This document shows, piece after piece, positions 1,128 to 15,366 of a stretch of 64,000 nucleotides of DNA. The stretch's first letter is position 1, and each line of letters starts with the position of its first letter. The stretch is from IMG/VR virus record IMGVR_UViG_3300042256_000013, positions 1 to 64,000 of that record; one strand, written 5' to 3'. The stretch comes from a virus (taxonomy: Duplodnaviria; Heunggongvirae; Uroviricota; Caudoviricetes). The notes beneath the pieces were generated by a model, which was not told the DNA's origin, did no database searches, and worked only from the letters and a program-made list of their open reading frames with translations. Position numbers and translations under genes: made by a program.

Positions 1128-1165
1128 GATAGTACTATAACAAAAGGGCTAACCGAAGTCAACCC
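1128..1165 (-). promoter_or_regulatory. sigma70-type promoter (TTGACT-N17-TATAGT-like) embedded in hairpin AAAGGGCTAACCGAAGTCAACCCCTTTTT
   Basis: -35 inside GGG...CCC hairpin followed by T-run, giving a composite promoter/terminator; the element recurs at least 12 times. Confidence 0.55.
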
Positions 1166-1174
1166 CTTTTTGAA

Positions 1175-1372
1175 TTAAAAATCGCAATGCACGGCGTCAG
1201 CACCCTGGCCATGCGGGAACAACTGATTTTGTACTTCGTCAAATACATCTTGATAAACGCTGGCGTTTTCTTTAGAGTATTCGCCAATGACGCGAGACAT
1301 AGCCTCATCGATGCCCAGGTGTTTCTTTGCCAGGACGTTGTTCGCGAGTTGCTGGATTCTTTCAGTAGCCAT
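1175..1372 (-). CDS. hypothetical protein (65 aa)
   Basis: GGAGAGTACAACA-ATG; promoter TTGACA-17-TATAAT at about 1400-1432 directly upstream. Confidence 0.5.
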   Translation of the reverse strand: MATERIQQLANNVLAKKHLGIDEAMSRVIGEYSKENASVYQDVFDEVQNQLFPHGQGADAVHCDF

Positions 1373-1399
1373 TGTTGTACTCTCCGTTGTTTCAGTACT

Positions 1400-1432
1400 G
1401 ATATTATATGATAGGGGCTAACTTATGTCAAC
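1400..1432 (-). promoter_or_regulatory. consensus sigma70 promoter TTGACA-N17-TATAAT (minus strand)
   Basis: revcomp reads ggggTTGACAtaagttagcccctatcaTATAATatcagtactg; the -35 lies in a terminator-like hairpin. Confidence 0.6.
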
Positions 1433-1443
1433 CCCTAATTTGA

Positions 1444-1749
1444 TTAAATCAATCCAGCTTCTTGAGCTACCTGGTAAGCAGGGGAACCGTAAGCAGGTTC
1501 GATCTCTTGCCAGTGTTCAGAGTTCAACGTGCCACCAGCGTCAAGATGTTTCTCGATTGCCATGATACGGCGATTCTGTTTCTCGCGAACGGCCTGTTGT
1601 TCATGCAGTTCATGAGTAGTTTCATAGGAAGTATTCAGAGCAATGCGACGGCCTGAATTAATATCCTGAGCAACGATGAAAAAGCTGGAGGCTTCTTGCC
1701 CGTTGTATTCTACTACATCATGACGAATAAAGAGAGTGAATCTGGACAT
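1444..1749 (-). CDS. hypothetical protein (about 101 aa; start moved to MSRFTLF)
   Basis: Track ORF 1444-1812 would overlap promoter 1783-1815; internal ATG has AGGAAACAAATCAA-ATG. Confidence 0.45.
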   Translation of the reverse strand: MSRFTLFIRHDVVEYNGQEASSFFIVAQDINSGRRIALNTSYETTHELHEQQAVREKQNRRIMAIEKHLDAGGTLNSEHWQEIEPAYGSPAYQVAQEAGLI

Positions 1750-1827
1750 TTGATTTGTTTCCTGTTCTTGTTTCAGTACTGATAGAATACTAAAAGGGGC
1801 TAACATTGTCAACCCCTTATTTGAATT

Positions 1828-2670
1828 TTATGCTTTATCTACTAACATAGTTGCCAGGTTCCACAACTTAGAGTTAAAGTCTAAGTTCTTATCAATGTTA
1901 GTTACGCCACGTGTTGTACGGCGGCGGCCTGATTCGCTACGGCCTGTTTGACCGCCTGCCATTACGTTTTGTTGTACAACATTAAACGTGCTGTAAAGGC
2001 TGTTGCTGTTACGGTCAGTACTGTTAATAATGCGAGTACTCAGCAACTGTTGAGGATCATACAGGTAGTTAATCTTTTCGCCGGGTTCTGGATAACCTTC
2101 TTTAGCGATGTAGCCAGCAATGGCAAACGCTTTACGTTGATCATCGGTTAACTGAATCCGGGACATTTCACCTTTGTAACGTTCGATGAGGTCAAAGTCT
2201 TTAACCACTTCGCATACACCTTCGATCACATCATCCATGATGTTATTACCTTTGTGATAGATCTTAGTGTTGCTTTGGGTGTTACCCATTACCAGACCAT
2301 TCGCACAAACGAAACGGAATTGACCGCTGATCAACTGATAGGCACTTGTGCCATCGTTGGCATTAAGAAGGATGATCTCGTTTGCTTCACCTTCTTTCAT
2401 ACCAGGTTGACGGAAACGCAACATATGTTTCGTGAATTCGCGTTTTGATGCATCGCGTACACGTGCCTGAGTGGCGAACATCGGGAAATAGTTTTCCTTC
2501 GCGAGACGATCAATCACGTCGATAGTTGGCACTGGTGCGAAACGGTTAGAACGTGATTCGTGTGCATCGTACTGGAATACGGACGGCACCACTTCCTGGA
2601 GTTCTGTTCTGGTCAGTGGACGGTTTTCTTTGATTGCTTTACCGTTGATACCCTGATACATTTTAATCAT
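1828..2670 (-). CDS. conserved hypothetical phage protein (280 aa)
   Basis: Long ORF with coding-like composition; no catalytic motif recognised. Confidence 0.6.
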   Translation of the reverse strand: MIKMYQGINGKAIKENRPLTRTELQEVVPSVFQYDAHESRSNRFAPVPTIDVIDRLAKENYFPMFATQARVRDASKREFTKHMLRFRQPGMKEGEANEIILLNANDGTSAYQLISGQFRFVCANGLVMGNTQSNTKIYHKGNNIMDDVIEGVCEVVKDFDLIERYKGEMSRIQLTDDQRKAFAIAGYIAKEGYPEPGEKINYLYDPQQLLSTRIINSTDRNSNSLYSTFNVVQQNVMAGGQTGRSESGRRRTTRGVTNIDKNLDFNSKLWNLATMLVDKA

Positions 2671-2746
2671 GATTCGTTCCTCTTGTTGGTGTAAGGTAAT
2701 AGTACTGGATTCTGTTTATGTTGTCCAGTACTATTTTAAAGTTTAA

Positions 2747-3004
2747 TTACTCGATACCGCCATCGACAGGCCAGTGATCACGAATGAATTTAGAACTGGA
2801 TGGAACGGCGGTCAGGTTACAAGTCAAGCGATCCGCATGTAAATGTGCCAGGCGTTCAGTACTGAATTCTACGCCAGGTTGATAGTGCTGGCGGTTGTTG
2901 TCGTGGTCAAGTGCAACCACGTCGAATGGGCGTTCAGCAGTTTTAGACCAGACTCTTACTTTAAATTCAATTCCAGATTTAGCCATCTTTAAACCCTCAA
3001 TCAT
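2747..3004 (-). CDS. hypothetical protein (85 aa)
   Basis: ORF downstream of leader repeat copy at 3047-3150 and promoter at 3150-3190. Confidence 0.5.
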   Translation of the reverse strand: MIEGLKMAKSGIEFKVRVWSKTAERPFDVVALDHDNNRQHYQPGVEFSTERLAHLHADRLTCNLTAVPSSSKFIRDHWPVDGGIE

Positions 3005-3046
3005 GTTTCGATATAAAAGATTATACAGTACTGTATGATTAACGCA

Positions 3047-3150
3047 AGGACTATTTGCATTTTAATTTAAAAATATTACTGTACAGATATACAGTACTAA
3101 ATCCACCAGCTACATTATGCCACCCTATAGGGTTAGTCCATTTCGCTGGA
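3047..3150. repeat. conserved leader repeat copy 2
   Basis: tgccaccctatagggttagtccatttcgctggagtgattaca shared with other copies. Confidence 0.65.
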
Positions 3151-3196
3151 GTGATTACATAATAACAAAAATGGTTGAACGTGTCAACCATTATTT

Positions 3197-3316
3197 TTAA
3201 AATATCCAGGCCAGTACAGCGACAAGAATAATTAATTGAAATACTCTTGTGGTCTTTGCCCCTTCGGTGTATGCTGGATTCACCGTTGTGTATTGGACAA
3301 CATGTTTCTGTTTCAT
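3197..3316 (-). CDS. small tail-anchored membrane peptide (39 aa, MKQKHVVQYTTVNPAYTEGAKTTRVFQLIILVAVLAWIF)
   Basis: CAGGAGAATCAA-ATG Shine-Dalgarno; own promoter at about 3338-3372; below the 60-aa cutoff of the ORF track. Confidence 0.35.
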   Translation of the reverse strand: MKQKHVVQYTTVNPAYTEGAKTTRVFQLIILVAVLAWIF

Positions 3317-3383
3317 TTGATTCTCCTGTTTCAGTACTGATATGATAGCAAAAGGGCTTAACCTTAGTCAAGCCCTATTTTGA

Positions 3384-4055
3384 TTAAAGATAAGTTACTG
3401 ATGGTTCACGAGGATCTTCTTCAAATTCCATCTCATTTGCGATGATAGTTTCTTTAACTTGTGCATCTTCAAGCAGATGATAGTAATGCGTATCCAGGTC
3501 TGAATAGTACGCCTTACCTTGTTCAGTGACAAAATAGTCAATTTCTTTTTCTAATTCTTCATACAAAGATTGTTGCTTTGGTGAAAGGTTAACGTAATAC
3601 TCACCGGACATAACAGCATCAGTTGTATTGTAATGAACATATCGTGAAGAGTTATCACGCTTAACACTACATGTTATTTCTTTTATAAGAATGTATTCAT
3701 GTAATGCACGATAATATGTCCAGCGTTTTTGAGCACGTAAAAACTTCTCAATATCGACGTTACTTGCGGTGAAGCTCGCACCATCACCTTGCGAACAAAA
3801 ACCACAATACTGAGATTCTACACCTTCGAACCCGGTATTTTTCATAATTTCATGGTGGCGGTATTCGATGAAGTCATTCCAGTTTTGATCTTCAACGTTA
3901 ATGTCTCTGTTAAGATCAAGGGCTTTAGCTTGTTGTTGTTCGTTCAGTTCTTCAAATTTCATGGCAGTATCTCGCTTAATTGGATAAGCACCATTGCTTA
4001 CCTCATATAAAAGATTATACAGTACTGAATTGATAATGCAAGTACTATTACACAA
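3384..4055 (-). CDS. hypothetical protein (223 aa)
   Basis: Long minus-strand ORF; no domain recognised. Confidence 0.55.
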   Translation of the reverse strand: MCNSTCIINSVLYNLLYEVSNGAYPIKRDTAMKFEELNEQQQAKALDLNRDINVEDQNWNDFIEYRHHEIMKNTGFEGVESQYCGFCSQGDGASFTASNVDIEKFLRAQKRWTYYRALHEYILIKEITCSVKRDNSSRYVHYNTTDAVMSGEYYVNLSPKQQSLYEELEKEIDYFVTEQGKAYYSDLDTHYYHLLEDAQVKETIIANEMEFEEDPREPSVTYL

Positions 4056-4117
4056 TTAATGTACTAACGTGATATTAATACATTAATTGTGTGGATACCA
4101 GGTATCCACACTTGCTA

Positions 4118-4438
4118 TTATGCTTCTAACGCAGAACCAGTAAGTTTATAATGTTCACGTGCGGCACGAACATCATCAATAGTTTTGAAACGGCTTACAA
4201 AGAAACCTTTACCTAACGTGATAGTCCTGGTACGATTGGCAATAGATTGTTCAGATTCATCCATGTACTTAGGAGTTTTAGGAGACATATCAGCCGGGAA
4301 GTACACGACATATGCCATCTCAGTATAATCAACAATTACGCCGTGAGTAAATTCACCGTAATTATGAACTACTACAGTACCTAAAGCTAAAGGAAGTCTC
4401 TGAGTAGTTGCAACGTTTACAGTAGTGGATTTAGTCAT
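4118..4438 (-). CDS. hypothetical protein (106 aa)
   Basis: ORF preceded by leader repeat copy 3 at 4505-4650. Confidence 0.5.
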   Translation of the reverse strand: MTKSTTVNVATTQRLPLALGTVVVHNYGEFTHGVIVDYTEMAYVVYFPADMSPKTPKYMDESEQSIANRTRTITLGKGFFVSRFKTIDDVRAAREHYKLTGSALEA

Positions 4439-4504
4439 TTGTATGCTCGCTTAATTAATAGTTGTTTCGTTTAAGAGACACTATCTTGTCTCGATGTGTA
4501 TATA

Positions 4505-4650
4505 CTAACATAATCCATTCTCAATGCAAGTACTATTACGTTTTAATTTATAATTATTTTACTGTACAAATATACAGTACTTTTCAGTACTAAAAGCAAT
4601 TGGACGCAACTTGCCACCCTATAGGGTTAGTCCATTTCGCTGGATTGAAT
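4505..4650. repeat. conserved leader repeat copy 3
   Basis: caagtactattacgttttaatttat... ttgccaccctatagggttagtccatttcgctgg. Confidence 0.65.
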
Positions 4651-4694
4651 ACAGTATAGCAAAAAGGGCTAACCGAAGTCAACCCTTTATTTTC

Positions 4695-4916
4695 TTAATG
4701 CATCAGTTTATGGTCATTCAGCACGAATGGTGTAGCGAGTGCGTTTACCTTATCGGCGATGATCTGGCGGTCGAATCCACCCAGGAAGTTATTCAAAAGC
4801 AAACAACCCATCATGTTAAACTGATTGAACTCGCAGATCTGACCGATCACTTCATTCGCTTTCTTATCAGTGTCCGATGGTTCAGCGAACAATTCTCTTA
4901 ACATATCTTCCAGCAT
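4695..4916 (-). CDS. hypothetical protein (73 aa)
   Basis: AATGAGGGTAATATA-ATG; promoter/terminator element at 4935-4985; preferred over overlapping plus ORF 4611-4901. Confidence 0.45.
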   Translation of the reverse strand: MLEDMLRELFAEPSDTDKKANEVIGQICEFNQFNMMGCLLLNNFLGGFDRQIIADKVNALATPFVLNDHKLMH

Positions 4917-4997
4917 TATATTACCCTCATTGGTTTCAGTGTTTCAGTACTGATATTATTGATCAAGGGCTAACATATGTCAACCCCTGGATTTAAA

Positions 4998-5351
4998 TTA
5001 ATTGCAGTGATATACAATCTTTACTGGAATGTATACGCCGCCTTTAGGGATAGCGGTTTTCATGGTAAACATAGTTCCCGCTTGTTCGATAGTACCAGTA
5101 TCATTACGATAAACATTGTAATCTTTCCAGAATTGTGTAACTGGTAAATCAGTGTCGTTAACCTGTACTTCGATCACTGGTTCAGTTACAGTAATCTGAA
5201 TGATATGTGCCTGGTCAGAACTATCATTTACTTTTTGATAGTCACCATTACCAGTACCTTGATACAGTGTATAGCTACTGCAAGTATGGATTGAAGTACT
5301 TGCATTTGCGAATGAAGCCACCAGCAAGCCTAACAAAAGAAACTTTCTCAT
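4998..5351 (-). CDS. secreted protein with signal peptide (MRKFLLLGLLVASFANAST..)
   Basis: Start moved to MRKF with AACGGAGTAAATGAA-ATG; N-terminal hydrophobic signal peptide. Confidence 0.5.
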   Translation of the reverse strand: MRKFLLLGLLVASFANASTSIHTCSSYTLYQGTGNGDYQKVNDSSDQAHIIQITVTEPVIEVQVNDTDLPVTQFWKDYNVYRNDTGTIEQAGTMFTMKTAIPKGGVYIPVKIVYHCN

Positions 5352-5421
5352 TTCATTTACTCCGTTGTGTTCAGTACTGATAGGATAGCAAAAAGGGCTA
5401 ACCGAAGTCAACCCTTTATTG

Positions 5422-6138
5422 TTATTTAATTTGTCGTAATTCTCTTATTGCATCAAAGATGTATTCAATTATAATCGCTGGATTATTTGATTCTTTTTCT
5501 GCGTCAACGGTTACATCATACAAGTGTTGTACAGCTTTACGAAATACTGTAGGATGAAAACGTTGTACGATTCTAACTAATCCATCCACATATTCTGGAT
5601 TAGATTTAAAGATTCTGGACCATATATGCTTTAATGAATCTAGTTGTGATGGTGCTTCTGTTACAGTACTTTCATCTAATGATATAGCATTCATGATAGC
5701 TTCATACTTATCATAAACATCATCAGATTCAGTATTATGTGCAGCGTGAAATACTGCCTTGACAGCGTTTTGATATTGTGCTGGTGGCACTGATTTTAAT
5801 GCGGTTGTAATATCTTTGATGTAAGTTGGTTCACCGTCGAACATCTTACGCAAGACATTAGGCAGATCTTTGATCGATGGTTCAGGAGTTGGTTCACGCC
5901 CTGGCATAAGTCCTAATGATTTAAAGTACTTTAACTTTTCATCTGGATTCATGCGAGAAGTATCAACGCCCTGAGATGGCATTGTGTTTAGCTTGCCTTG
6001 TAAGCCTGTTCCCTGGTTACGTGATCCGCGATCACCTTGTCCAGCGTCATGACTGTTTGATCTACGATTGCTATTACTCCACTTGTCAGCGTGTCCAGCT
6101 ATAGTAGCATCTTTTTTGTTAACGAATTTTCCTGGCAT
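5422..6138 (-). CDS. hypothetical protein (about 238 aa)
   Basis: Start moved to MPGKF (TAGGGGATTTTTTATT-ATG). Confidence 0.5.
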   Translation of the reverse strand: MPGKFVNKKDATIAGHADKWSNSNRRSNSHDAGQGDRGSRNQGTGLQGKLNTMPSQGVDTSRMNPDEKLKYFKSLGLMPGREPTPEPSIKDLPNVLRKMFDGEPTYIKDITTALKSVPPAQYQNAVKAVFHAAHNTESDDVYDKYEAIMNAISLDESTVTEAPSQLDSLKHIWSRIFKSNPEYVDGLVRIVQRFHPTVFRKAVQHLYDVTVDAEKESNNPAIIIEYIFDAIRELRQIK

Positions 6139-6192
6139 AATAAAAAATCCCCTATGACTATAGTTTATTATAATCATATTTAGGGGATTATG

Positions 6193-6435
6193 TCAACGTC
6201 TAGCAATGAAATTGTTATATTGTTCATGAGTCATAAGGTTAAGTTTGCCATTGTCAATAACAATACGTTCTTTGTGCGATACTTCAATAACACTGAACAA
6301 TCCACAATTTAATTTTCTTGATCGCAGTTGTCCACCTTTGTATTCTTTCACAATACGAATAGCTCTGTCAAGTACTTTAGTCTGAGCTTTAAAATGAATT
6401 CGTAATTGTGTATCATCAATCATAATCTTTTTCAT
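6193..6435 (-). CDS. hypothetical protein (80 aa)
   Basis: ORF only. Confidence 0.4.
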   Translation of the reverse strand: MKKIMIDDTQLRIHFKAQTKVLDRAIRIVKEYKGGQLRSRKLNCGLFSVIEVSHKERIVIDNGKLNLMTHEQYNNFIARR

Positions 6436-6484
6436 TGATACACCCCATGAATAAACAGGGGGCTATAACCCCCTGTATCGCATT

Positions 6485-6850
6485 TTAAGAGACTTTCTGT
6501 AAATGCTGAGCCAGTCGTACCGCCGTCATACTGCGACGCCAGGAAACGCGTACAGACTTGTTATTTGGCGTTTTTAGTACTTGCTCGCCGATGATTGTGC
6601 CTGGACGGTTCAACGTTGCTTTCGCTTCTTGTGGCGATACATCGTGATGTAAGTCAGCCAGTGTCTGTTGTGCTTCTGCGATCTGTTCATCGCTGGCATC
6701 AGCAGGAAGTACAATGTACGGTTCAGATACTACCGCCCAACGTTCACCTTTAGGTGCAGTACTGCCAAAGTCTTTTACTTTCGCGTTCAGCGTAGTAGCT
6801 GCTTCACGTGCAAGTGTTCTGGTTGCGAAAAAGATAGTTTCGATAGTCAT
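6485..6850 (-). CDS. hypothetical protein (about 121 aa)
   Basis: Start at MTIETIFF with AGAGGAAAGACACA-ATG; locally GC-richer. Confidence 0.45.
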   Translation of the reverse strand: MTIETIFFATRTLAREAATTLNAKVKDFGSTAPKGERWAVVSEPYIVLPADASDEQIAEAQQTLADLHHDVSPQEAKATLNRPGTIIGEQVLKTPNNKSVRVSWRRSMTAVRLAQHLQKVS

Positions 6851-6913
6851 TGTGTCTTTCCTCTTTGTTGTCGATGAATGTACTATATCAGTACTGAAAT
6901 TACATTGCAAGTA

Positions 6914-7366
6914 CTATTTGCGTTTCAAGAATAAGTCTTTATACTCTTGTAAATCATCTAGTACTTCTTTCTTTGCTTTATCATCTTTTTGCATGTTAGC
7001 AACAATTTCAATTGCTTCCATCGCCATATTATGCCTGGCAATATCTTTACCAACATGACCAGCCAATAAAGATGAAGGGAAATGTGTAGAATCTTCTATT
7101 AATAAGAAGTCTACCATATCCTGTACAGTCATTAAAGCCCGTGGTGTAGTGGCGGCTTTATGTTCTTTCCACTTAGCATGAGCACGTTTCCATAACCGCA
7201 AACGTAAGGGATCTTTTGGCTTTGGCGGTTTAGAACCACTCATAAACGCTTGAAAGTAATCCTCTTCAGTTTTGAACTTGCGTTTAGCACCGAACTGAAC
7301 ATTACGTGCGATCTCGTCAAGGGCAGTCGCTATGCCTTTCGGCAACCCTATTGTATTCTGACCCAT
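6914..7366 (-). CDS. hypothetical protein (150 aa)
   Basis: ORF; basic/charged composition. Confidence 0.5.
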   Translation of the reverse strand: MGQNTIGLPKGIATALDEIARNVQFGAKRKFKTEEDYFQAFMSGSKPPKPKDPLRLRLWKRAHAKWKEHKAATTPRALMTVQDMVDFLLIEDSTHFPSSLLAGHVGKDIARHNMAMEAIEIVANMQKDDKAKKEVLDDLQEYKDLFLKRK

Positions 7367-7367
7367 T

Positions 7368-7697
7368 CTATCTTACCTTACATTGTACCACAAAAGAATC
7401 ATAACTGTTTTGTGCCATAAAGTCAATCTCTTTATCATTAAAAGTTTTCAGTACTTGAGTTACTTTTAAACCTTCAATGAATGTTTCTGTTTGAAGATTG
7501 TCAAGTAACTTTGTTTTTTCTATACTGAACCAACGTTCTTGTTTTAATTGATCCGGCATAAAGTACTGATACTTACAATCAAATGTCGGATCTTTAAATG
7601 GATTCAACTTGTCAATAACTTCTGGCGTAATAGATTTACCAATTACTACACCACATGCTAATGCTGCCAGTACTATCAATGTGGTTGATTTTTTCAT
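7368..7697 (-). CDS. secreted protein (signal peptide MKKSTTLIVLAALACGVVIG)
   Basis: N-terminal signal peptide; start moved to MKKST. Confidence 0.45.
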   Translation of the reverse strand: MKKSTTLIVLAALACGVVIGKSITPEVIDKLNPFKDPTFDCKYQYFMPDQLKQERWFSIEKTKLLDNLQTETFIEGLKVTQVLKTFNDKEIDFMAQNSYDSFVVQCKVR

Positions 7698-9481: not shown

Positions 9482-9489
9482 AAACTACC

Positions 9490-9726
9490 TCATGTTAATT
9501 TACCGGATGAATTATATAAGAAAGAAGGAATGTCCTTCTTGCCTAGTTCTACTACATATGACGGATCGATCTGCTGAACATGTTCAATAGCCCGATCCAT
9601 AGTCATCTTTGGTGCATCACCCTGGCGACTCGCTTTATCAGCCAGGATAGTACAGCGAACTTCTGTACGATTATACAGATCATTCTCAGCTTGCTTAATA
9701 TGAACTACTGATTCAACTCTTCTCAT
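9490..9726 (-). CDS. hypothetical protein (about 78 aa)
   Basis: Track start is TTG; nearest ATG used; weak RBS. Confidence 0.35.
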   Translation of the reverse strand: MRRVESVVHIKQAENDLYNRTEVRCTILADKASRQGDAPKMTMDRAIEHVQQIDPSYVVELGKKDIPSFLYNSSGKLT

Positions 9727-9935
9727 TTTTGTTTCCAAATAAAAAGATTAAACGCCAGAGAAACAATGATACCAACAAACGTTGCTGAAGTCAACAACTC
9801 AATTCGTTCAAAGTACCGATAAATTGAAATATTATCACTCGGTACAAATCGCACATAATATGCTATAGTATCAAGCATCATTGATACCAGTGCTGAAATG
9901 ATAAACACAATCAATGAACACATAAACCGTTTCAT
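9723..9935 (-). CDS. small membrane protein (70 aa, 2 TM)
   Basis: Two hydrophobic helices. Confidence 0.45.
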   Translation of the reverse strand: MKRFMCSLIVFIISALVSMMLDTIAYYVRFVPSDNISIYRYFERIELLTSATFVGIIVSLAFNLFIWKQK

Positions 9936-10017
9936 TCAAATGTACTCCTGCGTTTCGATACAATCATAGTACTACATTGTTTTTATTGGTGCAAGTACTT
10001 TATTCAAAAACTTTTCC

Positions 10018-10046
10018 TTGACAAGCCATACGAGTTCCCATATAAT
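10018..10046 (+). promoter_or_regulatory. perfect consensus sigma70 promoter TTGACA-N17-TATAAT on plus strand
   Basis: cttttccTTGACAagccatacgagttcccaTATAATtac; transcript would begin ACATAGACGCGAGAAAGCGGGAACCCAAGGGGGTGGCAA, homologous to the 5' end of sRNA-B at 17983. Confidence 0.6.
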
Positions 10047-10154
10047 TACTACATAGACGCGAGAAAGCGGGAACCCAAGGGGGTGGCAAAATGTATTCAT
10101 ATGAAATAGTACTGTACATAAAAACAGTACTGGATATTTCACCAGTACTTTGCT

Positions 10155-10463
10155 TTATAGCCAGATGTATTTCGATGCACTATAATACTCTTTGTCAAGT
10201 ACTACAACGCCGCCACAATCATACATTGTTTCTTTACCCCAACACAATAATGTGTTATTGTCAAACAATGCAAGCCAGCCATATGAATGATCAACATACA
10301 CGGTGTAGTTACCATTCGTTTCAACTTCTATCCAGTTCGCGGGTTTTCCATCGGCAACCCATGCACTGATGTTTTGTTGAGAATCTGAAATGATATGATT
10401 TTCAGCTATACCTTTCAATTTCTGTAATTGTGACAGACGATGATTTAAATCAATTTGTTCCAT
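10155..10463 (-). CDS. hypothetical protein (102 aa)
   Basis: Protein-like composition; preferred over Cys/His-rich antisense plus ORF 10091-10369. Confidence 0.5.
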   Translation of the reverse strand: MEQIDLNHRLSQLQKLKGIAENHIISDSQQNISAWVADGKPANWIEVETNGNYTVYVDHSYGWLALFDNNTLLCWGKETMYDCGGVVVLDKEYYSASKYIWL

Positions 10464-10478
10464 GATTGTATCCTTTAC

Positions 10479-10703
10479 TTAAATTGCTGAGTTACGCCCA
10501 GGGAAAGTAGTACTATTCAATCTTTCCCATATGCCCCGCTCATATGCGATCATTGCGTTTGCTTCACCCATCGCAGTATTATTGTACGTAACAACATTCG
10601 AACCATTACGCACAATATAGTACTCATGAATATTATCAGGCTGTACAGATAAAGTCAAATCAGATTTACCCTGTACCTTTAATTCTGCGATCAACGTTTC
10701 CAT
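10479..10703 (-). CDS. hypothetical protein (74 aa)
   Basis: AGTACT-class promoter at 10730-10775 upstream. Confidence 0.5.
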   Translation of the reverse strand: METLIAELKVQGKSDLTLSVQPDNIHEYYIVRNGSNVVTYNNTAMGEANAMIAYERGIWERLNSTTFPGRNSAI

Positions 10704-10779
10704 TTGAATTACCTTGTCAATAAAGTAACTTCATTATAAAGTACTCGCATTCCGCTTGCAAGTACTTTTGATAATGATT

Positions 10780-10980
10780 TTACGCTGTACGAATTACCAG
10801 GATGTTAGAATTGATTTCCCACGCCTGGCCGACTTCCAGATCAATGATGCTGCACAATTCATCATTAGTAAGATCCGGTACTGTTTCGATCACTTCCAGC
10901 AGTACTACTTTGTGCTTGATCGCGTCAGTGTCTTTGTCGCTTACAGTGTATTCACGATTCGCATGATCTGCTACGCTCAT
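10780..10980 (-). CDS. hypothetical acidic protein (66 aa)
   Basis: GGAGGGTAAACC-ATG strong RBS; preferred over plus ORF 10756-11133. Confidence 0.45.
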   Translation of the reverse strand: MSVADHANREYTVSDKDTDAIKHKVVLLEVIETVPDLTNDELCSIIDLEVGQAWEINSNILVIRTA

Positions 10981-10983
10981 GGT

Positions 10984-11187
10984 TTACCCCTCCACCAGCA
11001 CACGGGAACCACGGACATTAGGAACCTGGCCGGACTTCTTAAAGCGGTTTACTTCTTGCTCCGCTTCATGACGCGATGCGAAGTCATCAACGCGAGTACC
11101 TTCGAAACGCAGAACAAAACGCTTCTTACCTGATACATGACCAGTGAATTCAGCCATGATTGCATAACGACGATCTTTTTGAGCCAT
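10984..11187 (-). CDS. hypothetical protein (67 aa)
   Basis: AAGAGGATTTACAA-ATG; AGTACT-class promoter at 11232-11268. Confidence 0.5.
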   Translation of the reverse strand: MAQKDRRYAIMAEFTGHVSGKKRFVLRFEGTRVDDFASRHEAEQEVNRFKKSGQVPNVRGSRVLVEG

Positions 11188-11274
11188 TTGTAAATCCTCT
11201 TAATTAATGGTTATTGCGTTTCAGTAAGTTCATTATATAGTACTCGCTACCGATTGCAAGTACTATTAATGGAT

Positions 11275-11511
11275 TTACAACAAAATAATTTTGTCAATAC
11301 CAGCAGCATTCAGATCCGACATATACGCCTGATTACTGTTATTGAGCTTTTCAACGGTACATGATACATTGAAAGCATATTCATTGTAAGCCCAACCAAT
11401 GATAACGTTTCTCATAATATGCTCGTTATCATTGTCAGACAGTACTAACAGATTATCAGTACCAGCAGAACCGACTGAAGTACTTGTAACAGTTACTTTA
11501 TATTGTGCCAT
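11275..11511 (-). CDS. hypothetical protein (78 aa)
   Basis: AAGAGGAAATGCAAC-ATG. Confidence 0.5.
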   Translation of the reverse strand: MAQYKVTVTSTSVGSAGTDNLLVLSDNDNEHIMRNVIIGWAYNEYAFNVSCTVEKLNNSNQAYMSDLNAAGIDKIILL

Positions 11512-11639
11512 GTTGCATTTCCTCTTAATGATTAATACCTAAAGCCAGGATAAACAAAACAAATAACAGTACTTGATAACGTAATTTCATTTCTTTACCC
11601 TAAGTTGCCCTTCCATGTAATACATATTATCAGAATCCA

Positions 11640-11730
11640 AAAGAAATGCAAGTACTATTTTCATTTTAATTTATATTATTTTTTGGACGGATCTTGCCAC
11701 CCTATAGGGTTAGTCCATTTCTCTGGAGTG
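11640..11730. repeat. conserved leader repeat copy 4
   Basis: aatgcaagtactattttcattttaatttatattattttttggacggatcttgccaccctatagggttagtccatttctctgg. Confidence 0.65.
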
Positions 11731-11782
11731 ATTACAGTATAGCAAAAAGGGATTGAACAAGTCAACCCCTAATTTTAGTACT

Positions 11783-12088
11783 TTACAAATCGCGTACAGC
11801 CGTTGTATGTGTAATGAACCGGGAAGTTCCACCGATCAATTCAACTTTCGCCATAAGTGAAATATGATCGCCAGCAGTAGGCAAGGCTAATGCTTCCTGT
11901 ACAGTGATTACATTACCATATGAGTACTGGTACTGGCTAAACTTAAGCCATTCACCAAAGATCAATTCAGGCTTTTCCCCATGACCGACAAGGCATACAT
12001 TGTCAATCACAATCGGCTTGCCAGTATGATCTCTGCAAACTACTGTATATGTGAAAGCCTTTGAGAAGTTATCAAGGTTTATTGACAT
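11783..12088 (-). CDS. hypothetical protein (101 aa)
   Basis: ORF only. Confidence 0.5.
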   Translation of the reverse strand: MSINLDNFSKAFTYTVVCRDHTGKPIVIDNVCLVGHGEKPELIFGEWLKFSQYQYSYGNVITVQEALALPTAGDHISLMAKVELIGGTSRFITHTTAVRDL

Positions 12089-12329
12089 TTTCTAATGTTA
12101 CCTTAAGTGAGTTTGACATACGGTGTCGCATTGCTTTTAGTACCATTCGACACGCTACAATTTTTGACTTTTCATCCAACCGCTTAAACCCAGGACGTTT
12201 CATTGAATGAGATTGTAATTGTGTCCAATTATCCACCCGTTGCCCCTTGCGATAGATTATACAACTAATCCTATCAGTACTGCAAGAAAAGAATACAACT
12301 AATCGCCGGGTATTATATAATCTTTGCAT
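12072..12329 (-). CDS. hypothetical basic protein (85 aa)
   Basis: CAGGAGCTT-ATG; hairpin GGGGGCATATTGCCCCC upstream. Confidence 0.4.
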   Translation of the reverse strand: MQRLYNTRRLVVFFSCSTDRISCIIYRKGQRVDNWTQLQSHSMKRPGFKRLDEKSKIVACRMVLKAMRHRMSNSLKVTLENVNKP

Positions 12330-12376
12330 AAGCTCCTGTACAGCGTTTTAACGGGGGCATATTGCCCCCTATAGGA

Positions 12377-12754
12377 TTACAGTTCGAACTTATCGTAAAC
12401 GTTACCTGATGCGATCCAGACGCTGAATTTTGGCATGTTATCCCATTCAGCAGACTTAAGACTTAATGAATGTAAGTATTCAGTACTATCCATTCCTGGT
12501 ACATTGCGAGCCGTACTATACAACTTTCCTTTGTACTGGTACGCTAAACAGGTCTTTTTATTATTCACGTCACAACGCATAGCTGTAATGAGATTGTGGC
12601 AGGCGAACATGTCACGCTTTAATTTCAATTCACTGCCTACGCGTTTACTAACTCTCATCATTTCGCGTGAACAGTATTCGCGATCCTTTCCATGCTCCGC
12701 GATATGATTAAAAGTACCAACAATGTCAGCCATAATGGTAGTTAACTTATTCAT
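12377..12754 (-). CDS. hypothetical protein (125 aa)
   Basis: ORF preceded by leader repeat copy 5. Confidence 0.5.
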   Translation of the reverse strand: MNKLTTIMADIVGTFNHIAEHGKDREYCSREMMRVSKRVGSELKLKRDMFACHNLITAMRCDVNNKKTCLAYQYKGKLYSTARNVPGMDSTEYLHSLSLKSAEWDNMPKFSVWIASGNVYDKFEL

Positions 12755-12789
12755 GCTTTACTCCTTTCGTTTGGTGTATAAACATATTA

Positions 12790-12925
12790 TCAGAATCTAA
12801 GATTAACACAAGTACTTTATACGTTTTAATTTAAAAATAATACTGTACATGTATACAGTACTAAATCCACCAGCTACATTATGCCACCCTATAGGGTTAG
12901 TCCATTTCTCTGGAGTGATTACATA
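12790..12925. repeat. conserved leader repeat copy 5
   Basis: Same block as copy 2, including ...tgccaccctatagggttagtccatttctctggagtgattaca. Confidence 0.65.
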
Positions 12926-12970
12926 GTACTATAAAGGGCTAACCGAAGTCAACCCTTTATTTGTAAAGAT

Positions 12971-13162
12971 TTAAATAGCTTTCCAGCGGCCTTTTACTTT
13001 CCGGTGCGTTTCAATGTACATGTTGTTAATGCCGCTGATATAACCTACACTATCAGATCCCGACATTGTAGCACTTTGTTTCGCTCCACGTTCTGAATAT
13101 CCACATGGAATAGCGTTTCCTCTGGAACTTGCGAACGCATAAACACGATAGATTTTAGACAT
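12971..13162 (-). CDS. hypothetical protein (63 aa)
   Basis: ORF only. Confidence 0.4.
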   Translation of the reverse strand: MSKIYRVYAFASSRGNAIPCGYSERGAKQSATMSGSDSVGYISGINNMYIETHRKVKGRWKAI

Positions 13163-13164
13163 TG

Positions 13165-13560
13165 TTACACCGCCTTATTCAAGTACTGCACAAAGTAATA
13201 CATCGGGGAATGTAACGGCTCTTTAACAGTTACACGGTACTTGCTGATTTTGTAAACCAGTTTAAGGTTTTCAATTTCAGAGTTTTTAAGAGTATAATAC
13301 TCTTTCCCAATAATATCAAGATCAAAATGCTGCAAAAGAATAGTGCGAGCATTTGCGGCATCAACGCCAGTGTGCAAAACTGCCGCTTTCTTTTCGAACC
13401 CTTCCAGGAACTCCGAAGGAACATTTCGACGGTTCAACGCATTGATAGTGTTTTTATGAAAGCGTTTTCCGTTCTGGATCAATGCTTCATGTACTGATAC
13501 GGCTTTGTCGCCATTCATGAAACAGTAACCATCTTTGAAACCTCTAACATGTAAAAACAT
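13165..13560 (-). CDS. hypothetical protein (about 131 aa)
   Basis: AGGAAGTGAAA-ATG; track start is GTG at 13566. Confidence 0.5.
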   Translation of the reverse strand: MFLHVRGFKDGYCFMNGDKAVSVHEALIQNGKRFHKNTINALNRRNVPSEFLEGFEKKAAVLHTGVDAANARTILLQHFDLDIIGKEYYTLKNSEIENLKLVYKISKYRVTVKEPLHSPMYYFVQYLNKAV

Positions 13561-13633
13561 TTTCACTTCCTCGCTTGCTTAAGATAACTCATTGTAAAGT
13601 ACTCGCGAATGCAATGCAAGTACTTTCATTAAA

Positions 13634-13771
13634 TTATTGTTCAAATTCTGGAATAGCTACGTGATCCGCGTCTGCTTCATGATCCGTGTTATCATCTTCA
13701 TCAATATGATGACTAACACCGTTTTCCAGTACCTTACAACGTGTTCCACACTCACGGCAATAATTAATCAT
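13634..13771 (-). CDS. small zinc-ribbon protein (45 aa, MINYCRECGTRC...)
   Basis: ATGA overlap with the stop of 13768-14214; C-x2-C...C motif; acidic C-terminus; not in ORF track. Confidence 0.4.
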   Translation of the reverse strand: MINYCRECGTRCKVLENGVSHHIDEDDNTDHEADADHVAIPEFEQ

Positions 13772-14214
13772 TCTACAACCCCCGCCAGTAATTCACCAAC
13801 CCGCACCAGATGATAACGTTGCTCAAACGTTGCAGCATTGCGGCCTTTCAATTCAGCATAGCGAACGATAAACCACGTATCACCCTCAAACAAATAACGT
13901 ATATTGTTTTTAGTACAAATCAAAAACATTTCAATCGTACTGGTTTGAGGATCAACATTTGATTCACCGCGATCACGCTTATATGCGATAGTATAACCAG
14001 GCTCAGGTGTAGCGAAGGAATGTCCAGGAGGGCAATCGATCGATTCTGCCAGTACTGACAAATCACCCAGGGCAATTAATGCCGTTGCAGCATCAGCGGT
14101 GTTATAGTACTGTACTAGTTTTCTACCAGCTTGATCAATCACGCCGTCACAATTCAACCATGACCATGTAACCGTGTTACCTTCTTTAATTGCGATAACT
14201 GCTGGAGTAGCCAT
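13768..14214 (-). CDS. hypothetical protein (148 aa)
   Basis: AGTACT-class promoter at 14243-14285. Confidence 0.55.
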   Translation of the reverse strand: MATPAVIAIKEGNTVTWSWLNCDGVIDQAGRKLVQYYNTADAATALIALGDLSVLAESIDCPPGHSFATPEPGYTIAYKRDRGESNVDPQTSTIEMFLICTKNNIRYLFEGDTWFIVRYAELKGRNAATFEQRYHLVRVGELLAGVVE

Positions 14215-14291
14215 TTTTAAAACCTCATTCGCTTAAGTGATAACTCATTGTAAAGTACTTGCACGTAATATACAAGTACTTTCGTAATGAA

Positions 14292-14678
14292 TTATAGATC
14301 TTTCTTACGGTTCACATCTGCCAGGTTCTCAGATAATGGAATGTCCATATCTTTACAGAATCGTGACAATGTACCACAATCAGGAATCGGATAAGTGCAA
14401 GCAACCTCAAACAATGACAAAGCTGTTTGATCAAAGCCCCTCTCATACCCATACTGGAAAGTATCTTGTGCCAGGTCGATCCACACTGTACCATCTTCTA
14501 ATGGACGATTATACACGTTAGCCACAATCTCGTTTGCACGTTCTACTGGCACCAGCACACTAACATATACAGAATGATATGTGTTACCATCACCACGATT
14601 GAACCAGCGTTTAGCGGTCATTGTGACAGCGTGAACATCTGCGAGATTAACAGTATTATGAATAGTTCTATGTGTCAT
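14292..14678 (-). CDS. hypothetical protein (128 aa)
   Basis: ORF only. Confidence 0.5.
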   Translation of the reverse strand: MTHRTIHNTVNLADVHAVTMTAKRWFNRGDGNTYHSVYVSVLVPVERANEIVANVYNRPLEDGTVWIDLAQDTFQYGYERGFDQTALSLFEVACTYPIPDCGTLSRFCKDMDIPLSENLADVNRKKDL

Positions 14679-14782
14679 GAATATATCCTCAATTAAAAAT
14701 AGTACTGCGTTTTCAGTACTGCCTATTATACATGTTCACTTGAATGATACAAGTACTATTACGTTTTAATTTACTTTATTTT

Positions 14783-14813
14783 AAAACAAAAAATGCCCCA
14801 GGCTATGGGGCAT
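14783..14813 (-). terminator. intrinsic terminator (ATGCCCCAGGCTATGGGGCAT)
   Basis: GC hairpin with flanking A-run and T-run; ends the transcript covering the ORF-free 14835-15100 region. Confidence 0.6.
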
Positions 14814-15167
14814 TAATTGGTGAATTAGGCTCCTTTCAGAGCGTCAGTGATGGCACAAATGCGATCACTGAACTTCACACTACGCGGCAATTTATATAAG
14901 AAGTTTATCTATTAAATTGAATACCGGATAATCTTTCAGTACTAATCACATGCACCCTATAAGATGTGCTTTCGCTATGTGATTCCTGGTATAGACTTAT
15001 TTGTTCGCTATACGTCTTAGGGTTCTACGTACTGCCACCAGGATATCAGCCTGATGGTTCAAATCTTAACTCCTTCGGCGGCTCGCCATGTCGTTTCGAT
15101 GTAGCTATATTATCATAACTACCGATTCGATCAAGTACTTTTTTCAATTCTTTTTAAAATCTTTTCC

Positions 15168-15196
15168 TTGCAATCCTCATTCAGTACTGATATAAT
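15168..15196 (+). promoter_or_regulatory. consensus sigma70 promoter TTGCAA-N17-TATAAT (plus strand)
   Basis: ccTTGCAAtcctcattcagtactgaTATAATctttt with A/T-rich UP-like region upstream. Confidence 0.65.
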
Positions 15197-15202
15197 CTTT
15201 TA

Positions 15203-15359
15203 CATCGGCAGACAAAGCATGACCCCAGGGGGTGGATAATTGCGTCCAAAATTCATTACGTTTTCTCTGGACGGATCTTGCCACCCTTGTGGGTTAGACC
15301 GTTTCGCCGGATTAATAATATAGTACCAGAAAAGGGATTGAATCGTCAACCCCTTTTTT
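15203..15359 (+). ncRNA. candidate small RNA sRNA-A (about 157 nt)
   Basis: Runs from the promoter to a plus-strand intrinsic terminator (GGGATTGAATCGTCAACCCC + T6); no ORF; contains the leader-repeat sequence in antisense orientation to early mRNA leaders; long-range stem GGGGGTGG/CCACCC. Confidence 0.5.
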
Positions 15360-15366
15360 GTAAAGA

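Follow-up and report, generated by a model that had tools for sequence, protein, structure and literature searches.

Predicted PeSL-type promoter-terminator cassettes in the early region of a Rak2-like jumbo phage

The window analysed here, a 64-kb stretch of DNA, belongs to a Rak2-like (Mimasvirus-related) jumbo phage, i.e. a giant enterobacterial phage, and carries about 16 cassettes in which the -35 box of a strong, sigma70-like host-type promoter lies inside the hairpin of a predicted intrinsic terminator. These cassettes are very probably composite early-promoter/intrinsic-terminator units of the PeSL (promoter-early stem-loop) type, all acting on the minus strand, which holds the genes, the promoters, and the functional hairpins alike. 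[quoted passage not shown] All cassettes are intergenic: the upstream stop codon precedes the hairpin by 10-25 nt, and the next ATG follows after 25-50 nt in short-leader and 140-225 nt in long-leader cassettes. The composite design is real and clearly selected. The sequence analysis shows how the cassettes are built, that they are strand-specific, covarying, conserved, and non-random, and in which genomic context they lie. A description of such cassettes in this phage clade was not found in the literature; the design itself has precedents in T4-like phages and, since very recently, in bacteria.

A sequence-only reading of this DNA had listed a motif and its variants at 13 sites, all of which are present. 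The exact 23-mer AAAGGGCTAACCGAAGTCAACCC occurs four times in the window (1143, 4663, 5392, and 12933; expected 0), and variants of it are found at every one of the 13 sites. With each cassette numbered by the T of its minus-strand TTGAC, these sites are 1162, 1431, 1812, 3187, 3371, 4682, 4983, 5411, 11765, 12952, 15349, 15643, and 35123; three extra cassettes lie at 9794 (weak), 34027, and 39362 (lacking a T-tract). Read along the minus strand, the elements follow the order A-tract, GGGG-TTGAC, loop (often UUCG), GTYAG-CCCC, T-tract (+TG), and TATAAT. Stems comprise 9-12 bp and loops 3-7 nt, the stem position is fixed at -39 to -18, and the -35 box is always located in the 5' arm. Each site combines TTGAC(N) with a TAnnnT box (at 15643, the -35 is TTGTAA), and nine or ten of the 16 cassettes have an extended -10 (TG). 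The minus-strand TTGAC and its TATAAT-like partner were correctly recognized in the earlier reading; the spacer is 17 bp in eight cassettes and 18 bp in the other eight.

This arrangement is far from random. The minus strand holds 38 matches to the pattern TTGACN-N16-18-TAnnnT, the plus strand two. A slightly looser scan gave 42 sigma70-like minus-strand sites, 16 of which have a hairpin over the -35 box (dG <= -9 kcal/mol), compared to 0.29 expected from composition-preserving shuffles (n=200, mean 0.29, max 2), which bears out the earlier placement of the -35 box inside a hairpin. Approximately 26 promoters in the window are equally good yet have no hairpin, indicating that the hairpin is dispensable for promoter activity and that termination is not required at every gene.

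The individual cassettes, all on the minus strand, share this plan and differ in detail. The first (1134..1169) contains a hairpin at 1142-1169 (GGGGTTGAC-TTCG-GTTAGCCC), the -35 at 1157-1162, a T-tract with TG, and the -10 TATAGT at 1134-1139, followed by a long leader; its hairpin has a dG of -15.6 on the minus strand vs -5.7 on the plus strand. The element at 1403..1437 (-35 TTGACA 1426-1431, -10 TATAAT 1403-1408, dG -17.1) has a weak T-tract and a short leader, ATCAGTACTGAAACA, with the ATG start codon at 1372, and the element at 1784..1818 (-35 1807-1812, -10 TATTCT, short leader, dG -15.1) is also a match in the terminator scan. At 3159..3199 (-35 3182-3187, -10 TATTAT, long leader), the stem is a variant, ATGGTTGA/TCAACCAT, and the counterpart stems are compensated in the related phages XbC2 (GGGC/GCCC) and Kaldavass (AGGG/CCCT). 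Further elements are located at 3342..3382 (GGGCTTGAC-TAAG-GTTAAGCCC, -35 3366-3371, -10 TATCAT, short leader, dG -16.6), 4653..4688 (-35 4677-4682, -10 TATACT, long leader), 4955..4989 (-35 TTGACA 4978-4983, -10 AATAAT, weak T-tract, short leader), and 5382..5421 (-35 5406-5411, -10 TATCCT, short leader). A weak variant is found at 9766..9808 (GTTGTTGAC-TTCA-GCAAC, -35 9789-9794, -10 TATCAT, dG -7.7 to -10.9), and typical elements at 11736..11774 (GGGGTTGA-CTTGT-TCAATCCC, -35 11760-11765, -10 TATACT, long leader) and 12923..12965 (-35 12947-12952, -10 TACTAT, long leader). The element at 15320..15360 (-35 15344-15349, -10 TACTAT) faces a plus-strand promoter at 15168-15196, and its hairpin, flanked by a T-tract at each end, is about as stable on one strand as on the other (-16.1 and -15.3); it may therefore terminate both ways. 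The series continues with a variant at 15614..15656 (GGGCTTG-TAATACT-CAAGCCC, -35 TTGTAA 15638-15643, -10 TACTAT, short leader) and elements at 33999..34034 (GAGCTTGAC-GTGA-GTCGAGCT, -35 34022-34027, -10 TATTAT, dG -15.9) and 35094..35130 (GGGTTGAC-AGGT-GTCAGCCC, -35 35118-35123, -10 TATAAT, dG -17.1). The last, at 39334..39366, is a promoter with a hairpin over its -35 box (GTGGTTGA-CAAAAAC-TCAGCCAC) and no T-tract, and its function as a terminator is doubtful.

The hairpins are strand-specific. Pairing of TTGAC with GTTAG uses two G.U wobbles, so that the RNA hairpin is stable in the gene sense only, and the plus-strand version of the stem contains two A.C mismatches; the terminator, originally written on the plus strand, must consequently be assigned to the minus strand. 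Across 38 elements from three phages, the mean RNA dG is -15.0 kcal/mol for the gene strand and -9.85 kcal/mol for the opposite strand, and the gene-strand hairpin is the stabler one in 35 of the 38. This specificity argues for an RNA hairpin of the sense transcript and against a DNA palindrome, and the G.U pairs make most copies clearly one-directional. TTGAC shows no variation at T, T, and G and at least 90% conservation at A and C, while the bases on its 5' side change in concert with those they pair with: position -1 forms GC (22), CG (6), GU (5), and AU (1) pairs, and in all 34 elements the partner of T is only G or A and that of G only U or C, counts that come from minimum-free-energy structures and are hence biased towards pairing. 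Formal pair counting on the MAFFT alignment A1 was not possible due to the unequal loop lengths between elements. Stems at matching positions differ with compensation (ATGG/CCAT, GGGC/GCCC, AGGG/CCCT), and those of Serratia phage BF read GTAC/GTAC, AGAC/GTCT, and AGGC/GCCT. Covarying stems around a fixed TTGAC indicate that promoter and hairpin are both under selection. An inverted repeat spanning the -35 box, the classic location of an operator, could alternatively serve as the site at which a dimeric phage or host repressor silences the early promoters. We consider this highly improbable, given that the DNA repeat is, in most copies, imperfect in a manner that only RNA tolerates (TTGAC/GTTAG equals two DNA mismatches) and that the outer stem varies freely with compensation (GGGG, GGGC, GAGC, GTGG, ATGG, GTAC, AGAC), which is a signature of structure rather than of sequence-specific protein recognition.

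The sequence following the stem resembles that of intrinsic terminators. At least five T are present among the 8 nt past the G/C core in 13 of the 16 elements, T-richness ahead of the -10 box is a specific trait of promoters with a hairpin (3.56 T vs 2.35 T, p=0.019), and the terminator scan flagged several elements independently. Three elements (1431, 4983, and 39362) have a poor U-tract, and termination at them may be weak or absent. These three, together with the G.U pairs that point to action at the RNA level, would also suit a hairpin that mainly stabilizes or processes RNA, shielding the upstream mRNA at its 3' end or designating a cleavage site, with polymerase mostly reading through and the promoter overlap being incidental packing. 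Control of mRNA decay is heavily used by T4-type phages; stems of 9-12 bp, however, are too short for RNase III. The T-tract enrichment is specific to hairpin-bearing promoters, the fixed position of the stem amounts to more than mere proximity, and one PeSL stem-loop equalled rrnB T1 in termination (PMC2839356), all of which makes a primary role in RNA stabilization or processing very unlikely.

On the basis of homologous or analogous systems, we infer termination, initiation, and their interplay at the cassettes as follows. The incoming transcript of the upstream small gene would fold a G/C-clamped hairpin of 9-12 bp with a U-tract of 4-6 nt and be released ~7-9 nt past the stem, that is, within the -10 region of the next promoter. 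The same DNA would recruit host sigma70 RNA polymerase, with the 5' stem arm providing the -35 TTGAC, the A-tract ahead of the stem occupying the position of an UP-element, and the T-tract plus TG serving as spacer and extended -10 for TAnnnT at 17-18 bp. Initiation of a new transcript would follow ~10 nt past the predicted 3' end, and the promoter-bound polymerase probably reinforces termination and is also shielded from occlusion by upstream transcription. Every small early gene would thereby become an insulated, strongly expressed unit using ~40 bp of intergenic DNA. The proposal that one compact element both terminates the incoming transcript and initiates the following one agrees with every sequence-level test run, including the strand-specific hairpin shortly past the stop codon, the covarying stems with their invariant -35, the T-tract enrichment confined to hairpin promoters, and conservation at matching positions, as well as with the precedents of PeSLs (PMC2839356) and bacterial promoter-coupled terminators (bioRxiv 10.64898/2026.08.19.745784). 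The expectation that 3' ends coincide with start sites requires revision, as the predicted 3' end precedes the predicted start site by ~10 nt.

Ten promoters are directly followed by a covarying leader RNA element of ~45 nt (58-76 bits). The first copy, at 1072..1133 on the minus strand, is promoter-proximal and lies outside the cassette proper; other minus-strand copies are found at 3097-3158, 4591-4652, 11674-11735, 12861-12922, 15258-15319, and 18038-18099. On the plus strand, one copy (10048..10109) follows the promoter TTGACA-17-TATAAT at 10018-10046, and two more (15197-15258 and 17977-18038), each with its own promoter, face a minus-strand copy. Transcripts from seven of the hairpin promoters would carry the conserved leader at their very 5' terminus. 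Rfam gave nothing at gathering score across the whole window and nothing at E<=5 for two leader-bearing stretches. Two other features of the window are a 15-fold excess of AGTACT and a perfect 10-bp tandem array at 19058-19174.

The leader bears on the suggestion of the sequence-only reading that attenuation or antitermination modulates the hairpin. In such a scheme, read-through of the terminators would switch the phage from early to later expression. Densely spaced early-region terminators would make such control effective, a conserved covarying leader stands at the start of several of the transcripts concerned, and lambda nut and HK022 put sites are similarly placed relative to early promoters. 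Nevertheless, we consider regulation of this kind unlikely. Tuning of output by the hairpin left no sign in the sequence, with no alternative or anti-terminator pairing partner found for either arm, and a leader peptide is absent. Antitermination is pure conjecture, for which the leader is the only possible hook; no N-, Q-, or put-like homology and no Rfam match at the thresholds given above was found, and some leader copies belong to plus-strand promoters with no terminator series ahead of them.

Cassettes are retained at matching positions in XbC2 and Kaldavass, and matching-position elements are also found in BF, Yen9-04, and 7t3. The 40-nt consensus occurs at 479 places in 160 phage records; a near-identical 40-mer is present in unrelated phage lineages, including a Schizotequatrovirus genome, and independent annotators labelled the same sequence 'terminator' in phages Munch, G17, and UE-S1. 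This wide distribution could also reflect a primarily recombinational role, in which the cassettes are conserved homology patches (PeSL-style 'mobile regulatory cassettes') for the swap, insertion, and deletion of small genes, with the transcription signals travelling along. Such a role is compatible with the promoter-terminator explanation; as the primary one, we regard it as possible but less than probable. Synteny blocks vs XbC2 and Kaldavass stop at elements 3187/3205, 5424, 15368, and 15664-15681, and nucleotide identity of the cassettes is 85-100%, compared to 35-37% amino acid identity of the ORFs they flank. The identical 23-mer occurs in four window copies, and its XbC2 counterparts differ among themselves. 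Moreover, both relatives lack a 488-bp cassette (promoter, ORF 4118-4438, and hairpin) that has a 17-bp direct repeat on its two sides (at 4035-4051 and 4523-4539). However, it is the second (P2) promoter repeat, and not the hairpin element, that bounds the clearest indel, ORFs lying between elements are homologues that have diverged rather than unrelated replacements, and BLAST blocks ending at conserved islands beside fast-evolving ORFs are expected without recombination. Only 4 of ~22 block ends are located <=40 bp from an element, and recombination alone does not account for the strand-specific G.U pairing or the T-tract.

The promoter-terminator explanation also places the cassettes among known systems. 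Lambdoid 'morons' likewise consist of one small gene with a promoter and a terminator to itself, but they lack a conserved flanking repeat and frequently run in the opposite orientation (PMC2839356), whereas here the signals are fused in one conserved cassette co-oriented with the genes. The leader resembles lambda nut and HK022 put, by analogy only, in its small hairpins and conserved purine-rich loop immediately past early promoters of a terminator-rich genome; it differs in having no sequence or Rfam similarity to them and in also occurring as convergent inverted pairs. Canonical intrinsic (Rho-independent) terminators share the G/C-rich 9-12 bp stem, the 3-7 nt loop (often UUCG), and the U-tract, and the flanking A-tract adds the partial two-way symmetry of bidirectional terminators, with 15349 equally stable on both strands; unlike these, most copies are one-directional and their tail runs into the -10 hexamer.

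The closest viral relatives are the PeSLs of the T4-type phages RB49/phi1, PST/T4, and nt-1/KVP40 (Arbiol et al. 2010, PMC2839356; Comeau et al. 2014, PMC4122927), for which lacZ fusions demonstrated both promoter and terminator activity and which include a subclass whose stem-loop overlaps the -35 box (PMC2839356). Both are repeated intergenic cassettes of an ORFan-rich, plastic region, close to indels between near relatives, and combine an AT-rich tract and a near-consensus sigma70 promoter (TTGACA-N17-TATAAT) with a G/C-clamped stem-loop containing G.T pairs that terminates, here by prediction, the upstream gene. In contrast to PeSLs, the predicted cassettes described here reside in a Mimasvirus-related phage outside Straboviridae, about half have an extra conserved leader and second promoter, and their geometry is uniform, as opposed to five placements in RB49, where the stem most often occupies the -35/-10 interval or covers the -10 box itself. 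Promoter-coupled terminators of A. baumannii, E. coli, and B. subtilis (Fletcher, ..., Grainger 2026, bioRxiv 10.64898/2026.08.19.745784), reported in a preprint that mentions neither phages nor PeSLs, have the -35 in the stem, the T-tract beside the -10, and 3' ends ~10 bp before start sites. The geometry is identical, and both are located between tandem genes with an A-tract upstream. In bacteria, interference was measured and the coupled promoter increases termination efficiency, effects that would be expected of the phage cassettes by analogy. The bacterial examples are chromosomal with diverse stems, whereas here one sequence family is repeated in a virus.

The window carries 16 elements, each named here by the T of TTGAC on the minus strand, in which a promoter and a hairpin share the same bases. 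All 13 places at which the sequence-only reading had reported the motif contain variants of it, and further elements lie at 34027, at 39362 (without a T-tract) and, in a weak form, at 9794. A typical copy reads AAAAA-GGGG-TTGAC-TTCG-GTTAG-CCC-TTTTG-T-TATAGT on the minus strand: the -35 TTGAC makes up the loop-proximal half of the hairpin’s 5’ arm, the loop spans 3-7 nt (commonly UUCG), and the T-tract following the 3’ arm doubles as the promoter spacer, with the TG of an extended -10 at its end in 9-10 of the 16 elements. TTGAC(N)-17/18-TAnnnT is found in 16/16 elements, in agreement with the sigma70-like early promoter of PeSLs, the promoter-early stem-loop cassettes of T4-type phages. The earlier claim that TTGAC(A/T) is placed 17 bp from a TATAAT-like box on the minus strand holds for eight elements, the spacing being 18 bp in the other eight. 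Hairpin energies range from -9.7 to -17.5 kcal/mol, and the stem covers the -35 box, as in PeSL stem-loops, with G.U pairs opposite TTGAC. The stem occupies approximately -39 to -18, the T-tract approximately -17 to -13, and the -10 hexamer -12 to -7, which is the geometry of bacterial promoter-coupled terminators. With this geometry, the transcript would be expected to be released ~7-9 nt past the stem, with the start site lying roughly 10 nt further downstream.

This arrangement is not a product of base composition. The exact 23-mer AAAGGGCTAACCGAAGTCAACCC is present in four copies in the window (1143, 4663, 5392, and 12933) and absent from 100 shuffles, and the minus strand has 38 matches to TTGACN-N16-18-TAnnnT vs two on the plus strand. 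When a slightly looser -10 rule was applied, yielding 42 minus-strand sites, a hairpin passing a cut-off of at least -9 kcal/mol paired the -35 box at 16 of them; shuffling each site within its flank and spacer gave a mean of 0.29 and a maximum of 2 (200 trials). About 26 equally good promoters, many containing AAAAAGTCCTTGAC, lack the hairpin, and the hairpin is therefore an added feature rather than a by-product of the promoter. Strong sigma70-like promoters of this hairpin-less kind are found on the minus strand at, for example, 17404, 18736, 28429, 45056, 49820, 49935, 57415, and 61378, and many have AAAAAGT(C/A)CTTGAC, i.e. a conserved GTNC directly before the -35 box.

Several features point to transcription termination. 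As in intrinsic terminators, 13/16 elements have at least five T residues among the eight bases that follow the G/C core; the U-tract is weak or absent at 1431, 4983, and 39362. The eight bases before the -10 contain 3.56 T residues in hairpin promoters vs 2.35 in hairpin-less promoters (p=0.019), and the upstream A-tract, which corresponds to the AT-rich component of PeSLs, has a mean of 4.8 A in 6 nt at -45 to -40 vs 3.5 (p=0.011). A general terminator scan independently picks up several elements and misses others because their stem is extended with A:T pairs, which consumes the T-tract. The stop codon of the upstream gene is located 10-25 nt before the stem, and the next ATG follows 25-225 nt downstream.

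The credible ORFs between 1 and 16 kb all lie on the minus strand, and those flanking the elements are likewise all minus and in tandem, as is the case for promoter-coupled terminators, so the element must be read on the minus strand. Pairing of TTGAC with GTTAG uses two G.U wobbles, in place of which the plus strand has A.C mismatches. Folding of both strands for 38 elements from the window and from the phages XbC2 and Kaldavass gave a mean of -15.0 kcal/mol on the gene strand vs -9.85 kcal/mol on the other, and the gene-strand hairpin was the more stable one in 35 of the 38. The terminator, which had initially been assigned to the plus strand, is thus reassigned to the minus strand. The same folding predictions argue against a reading in which the inverted repeat would be a DNA palindrome recognized by a dimeric protein.

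Variation among the elements suggests that both functions are maintained. Across 33 aligned elements, the first three bases of TTGAC (T, T, and G) never vary, and its A and C are at least 90% conserved. Base pairs were counted in 34 distinct elements from TTGAC-anchored minimum-free-energy structures, which biases the counts towards pairing: the base opposite the first T is G in 19 and A in 15, the base opposite the G is U in 18 and C in 16, the position before TTGAC is GC in 22, CG in 6, GU in 5, and AU in 1, and positions -3 and -4 show GC, AU, and UA alternatives. The MAFFT alignment of the 33 elements (A1) was set aside for this formal counting; its 3’ arms are out of register because no gaps were placed in the loops. 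At one matching site, the stems differ in a compensated manner: the window has ATGG/CCAT, XbC2 GGGC/GCCC, and Kaldavass AGGG/CCCT. More distant phages have GTAC/GTAC, AGAC/GTCT, and AGGC/GCCT. Selection for the hairpin only would let TTGAC drift, and selection for the promoter only would leave the 3’ arm free of any need to track its partner; the sequences fit selection on both.

We consider it highly probable that the element is a fused intrinsic terminator and sigma70 promoter, predicted to act on the gene strand. The sequence-only reading is upheld in its core, namely a terminator joined to the promoter of the next transcript, and is unsupported in its extension towards attenuation or antitermination control. 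A secondary role as recombination homology is possible. With respect to genomic context, 13 of the 16 elements are located within 1-16 kb and are flanked by genes for small proteins, of which 9 of 10 tested match only PHROGs of unknown function, or none. We infer that the host sigma70 polymerase transcribes this part of the genome as the immediate-early, host-takeover region.

BLAST matches the window best to Xanthomonas phage XbC2 (Mimasvirus) and to Erwinia phage Kaldavass, each aligning with part of the query at ~83%, followed by Serratia phage BF, the Erwinia pEa_SNUABM phages, Yersinia phages fHe-Yen9-03/04, and Pectobacterium phage CBB, all of which are Rak2-like jumbo phages. An RB49-like identity of the window was ruled out by this search. 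The closest relatives (XbC2, Kaldavass, BF, and the Eneladusvirus Yen9-04) are not of the T4 type in which PeSLs were first described, which is a matter of taxonomic scope and not of mechanism. In the XbC2 and Kaldavass records, the first 18-25 kb correspond to this region, whose counterpart in CBB and fENko-Kae01 is part of a long terminal repeat. The homologous stretch contains 12 elements in XbC2 and 11 in Kaldavass, mostly at matching positions; 14, 8, and 8 were found in the stretches examined of BF, Yen9-04, and Salmonella phage 7t3, respectively. A 40-nt consensus matches 479 places in 160 phage records, covering all Rak2-like groups, Schizotequatrovirus Vibrio phages, the Aeromonas phage 65 group, and CR3/CB7-like phages; the Vibrio phage copy TAAAAGGGTTGACTTCGGTCAGCCCTTTTGCTTATAAT sits between two genes. 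The same composite sequence is annotated solely as "terminator" in Salmonella phage Munch (record L004, 611-634), G17, and UE-S1, and the hairpin promoter of fHe-Yen9-03 (record L003, ~1505-1545) carries no annotation; these are annotation gaps. Rfam, searched over the whole window at gathering score, returned only five tRNAs and no known RNA family over the element or the leader RNA described below. The tRNAs form a minus-strand cluster at 60134-61934 (Ala-TGC, Met-CAT x2, Lys-CTT, and Cys-GCA).

When the three genomes were compared, synteny blocks with XbC2 and Kaldavass stopped at the elements 3187, 5411, 15349, and 15643. The ORFs between conserved cassettes, including the two candidates for unrelated replacement genes, proved to be divergent homologues with 35-37% amino-acid identity, not foreign genes. 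Comparison of window positions 15367-15582 and 3215-3334 with 21111-21452 and 11149-11274 of record L001 showed 85-100% nucleotide identity for the intergenic cassettes vs the 35-37% of the small ORFs that they flank. This contrast suggests either very fast evolution of early proteins or exchange of alleles between conserved cassettes. The clearest indel is a 488-bp unit within 4035-4539 that consists of a promoter of a second type, an ORF (4118-4438; 106 aa), and a hairpin (4089-4111). The 17-bp direct repeat AATGCAAGTACTATTAC flanks the unit on both sides (4035-4051 and 4523-4539), and XbC2 and Kaldavass lack it altogether. From its sequence, the unit looks like the outcome of recombination between promoter repeats, and it involves the second promoter type, not the hairpin element.

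The elements fall into two classes according to what follows the -10. In the short class, the -10 is directly followed by ATCAGTACTGAAACA, a Shine-Dalgarno sequence, and the ATG. The long class comprises 1162, 3187, 4682, 11765, 12952, and 15349, together with the hairpin-poor promoter 18129, and continues with a conserved leader RNA of ~45-60 nt, an AT-rich tract, a second promoter (AATAGTACTTGCRTT-N17-TATAAT-like), and the gene. This second promoter family, AATAGTACTTGC(G/A)TT with a 17-bp spacing to a TATAAT-like box and the AT-rich tract AAATTAAAA before it, occurs at 1000-1060, 3010-3060, 4020-4050, 4500-4545, 11560-11660, and 12790-12830. It is placed 90-130 nt downstream of leader-bearing hairpin promoters, so that those genes have tandem promoters.

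The leader has three components. H1 has a 4-bp stem and the loop G(C/A)GAAA, H2 (CUAACCC-NNNN-GGGUG) is nearly invariant, and in H3 the GGGUG of H2 pairs alternatively with a variable downstream YRYCY. Among 47 distinct copies from six jumbo phages, all four pairs of H1 show changes on both sides; the inner five pairs of H3 are 94-100% paired in these copies, and the six-pair helix, as counted, reaches 89%. H3 alternates between GU and GC and between UG and UA, and partners slid by 1-3 columns give at most 46% pairing. A closing helix proposed by RNAfold (UGGAC/GUCCA) was rejected because copies whose H1 differs do not preserve it. The spacing from a sigma70-like promoter is the same for every copy, whatever the promoter type and on either strand, with 24 nt from the -10 to AACCC. 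A resemblance of CTAACCCTATAGGG to T3/T7-type promoters was also dismissed: the length is wrong, the Rak2-like clade is not known to have a single-subunit RNA polymerase, and transcription of the match starts in every case from a sigma70 promoter.

A covariance model identifies ten leader copies, none of them beyond 18.1 kb of the window: seven lie on the minus strand (1072-1133, 3097-3158, 4591-4652, 11674-11735, 12861-12922, 15258-15319, and 18038-18099) and three on the plus strand (10048-10109, 15197-15258, and 17977-18038). The plus-strand copy at 15197-15258 was recovered despite being outside the training set. The leader is common to Mimasvirus-like phages, Eneladusvirus phages, and Salmonella phage 7t3, and a search of two leader regions against Rfam at E<=5 gave chance-level matches only. 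In two regions (15168-15360 and 17940-18135), promoters converge: a plus-strand promoter at 15168-15196 faces 15349, and one at ~17945-17975 faces 18129. The plus-strand members read TTGCAA/TTGCAT-17-TATAAT/CATAAT. A copy of the leader comes after each convergent promoter, and the two copies thereby make up a long inverted repeat. The RNA fold of the inverted pair at 17975-18099 has an energy of -48.7 kcal/mol (z -5.9), and single leader copies have no unusual folding stability (z -0.3 to -1.4). The convergent pairs imply short antisense RNAs or transcriptional interference.

Candidate functions of the leader are a 5’ stabilizer hairpin, a put/nut-like antitermination signal, a protein-binding site, and sense/antisense control. 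A two-tier early programme, in which leaderless hairpin promoters would make insulated single-gene transcripts and leader-bearing transcripts or their polymerases would behave differently at downstream terminators, seems to us quite improbable. Such a difference could arise from put/nut-like processive antitermination, or from control by the antisense partner of a convergent promoter. If the two-tier programme were true, the leader would constitute a novel class of cis-acting regulatory RNA in phages.

A further recurrent sequence is the palindrome AGTACT, present 279 times in the window vs 18.4 +/- 4.2 expected, a 15-fold excess that extends over coding and intergenic sequence. It overlaps the predicted start of short-leader promoters (ATCAGTACTG) and also precedes the -35 box of second promoters and of many hairpin-less promoters (AAAGTACTTGAC). 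At 19058-19174, AGTACTGGAT forms a perfect tandem array (11.7 copies, 10-bp period, 100% identity), with additional AGTACT sites after it at 19221-19271. Because the array sits where the GenBank record of XbC2 starts (window ~19040 equals XbC2 coordinate 1), it may mark the end of the genome, the boundary of a terminal repeat, an origin, or an array of protein-binding sites. Directly upstream of promoter 18129, at 18282-18366, a 32-bp unit is imperfectly repeated in tandem (2.7 copies, 71% matches).

Composite promoter-terminators have been reported in two settings. In the phages RB49 and phi1, PeSLs recur as cassettes that combine a strong sigma70-like promoter with an AT-rich tract and a stem-loop, which can take five positions, including one that overlaps the -35 box; promoter and terminator activity were shown with lacZ fusions, and a role in modular shuffling was proposed (Arbiol et al., 2010; PMC2839356). 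[quoted passage not shown] The promoter-coupled terminators of A. baumannii, E. coli, and B. subtilis carry the -35 in the stem-loop DNA and the T-tract beside the -10, with 3’ ends ~10 bp before start sites (within 35 bp by definition), and the coupled promoter increases termination efficiency through proximity; that study names neither phages nor PeSLs (Fletcher et al., 2026; bioRxiv 10.64898/2026.08.19.745784). For CBB (PMC5259590) and PA5oct (PMC7318152), promoters and terminators are listed separately. We found no specific account of PeSLs or overlapping promoter-terminators in the literature on Rak2-like phages, and the sole mention of PeSLs that we came across there was one reference-list citation in a jumbo-phage review.

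Our results extend PeSL-type composite promoter-terminators from T4-type to Rak2-like jumbo phages, where they have seemingly gone unrecognized, and such sites deserve to be annotated with both promoter and terminator features. Since the -35 is fixed while the stem around it varies naturally in dozens of forms, the family provides a ready test set for the interplay of promoter occupancy and termination, and the cassette itself offers a compact insulator part of ~40 bp for synthetic biology. [quoted passage not shown] With promoter-coupled terminators, they share the same geometry and the position between tandem genes, while the ~10-nt distance from 3’ end to start site is a prediction here. 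The window cassettes are ordinary in kind, yet a clean, highly regular, and apparently undescribed jumbo-phage instance. The phage cassettes have the exact geometry of the bacterial promoter-coupled terminators, and one design principle is therefore being described by two bodies of literature without cross-citation.
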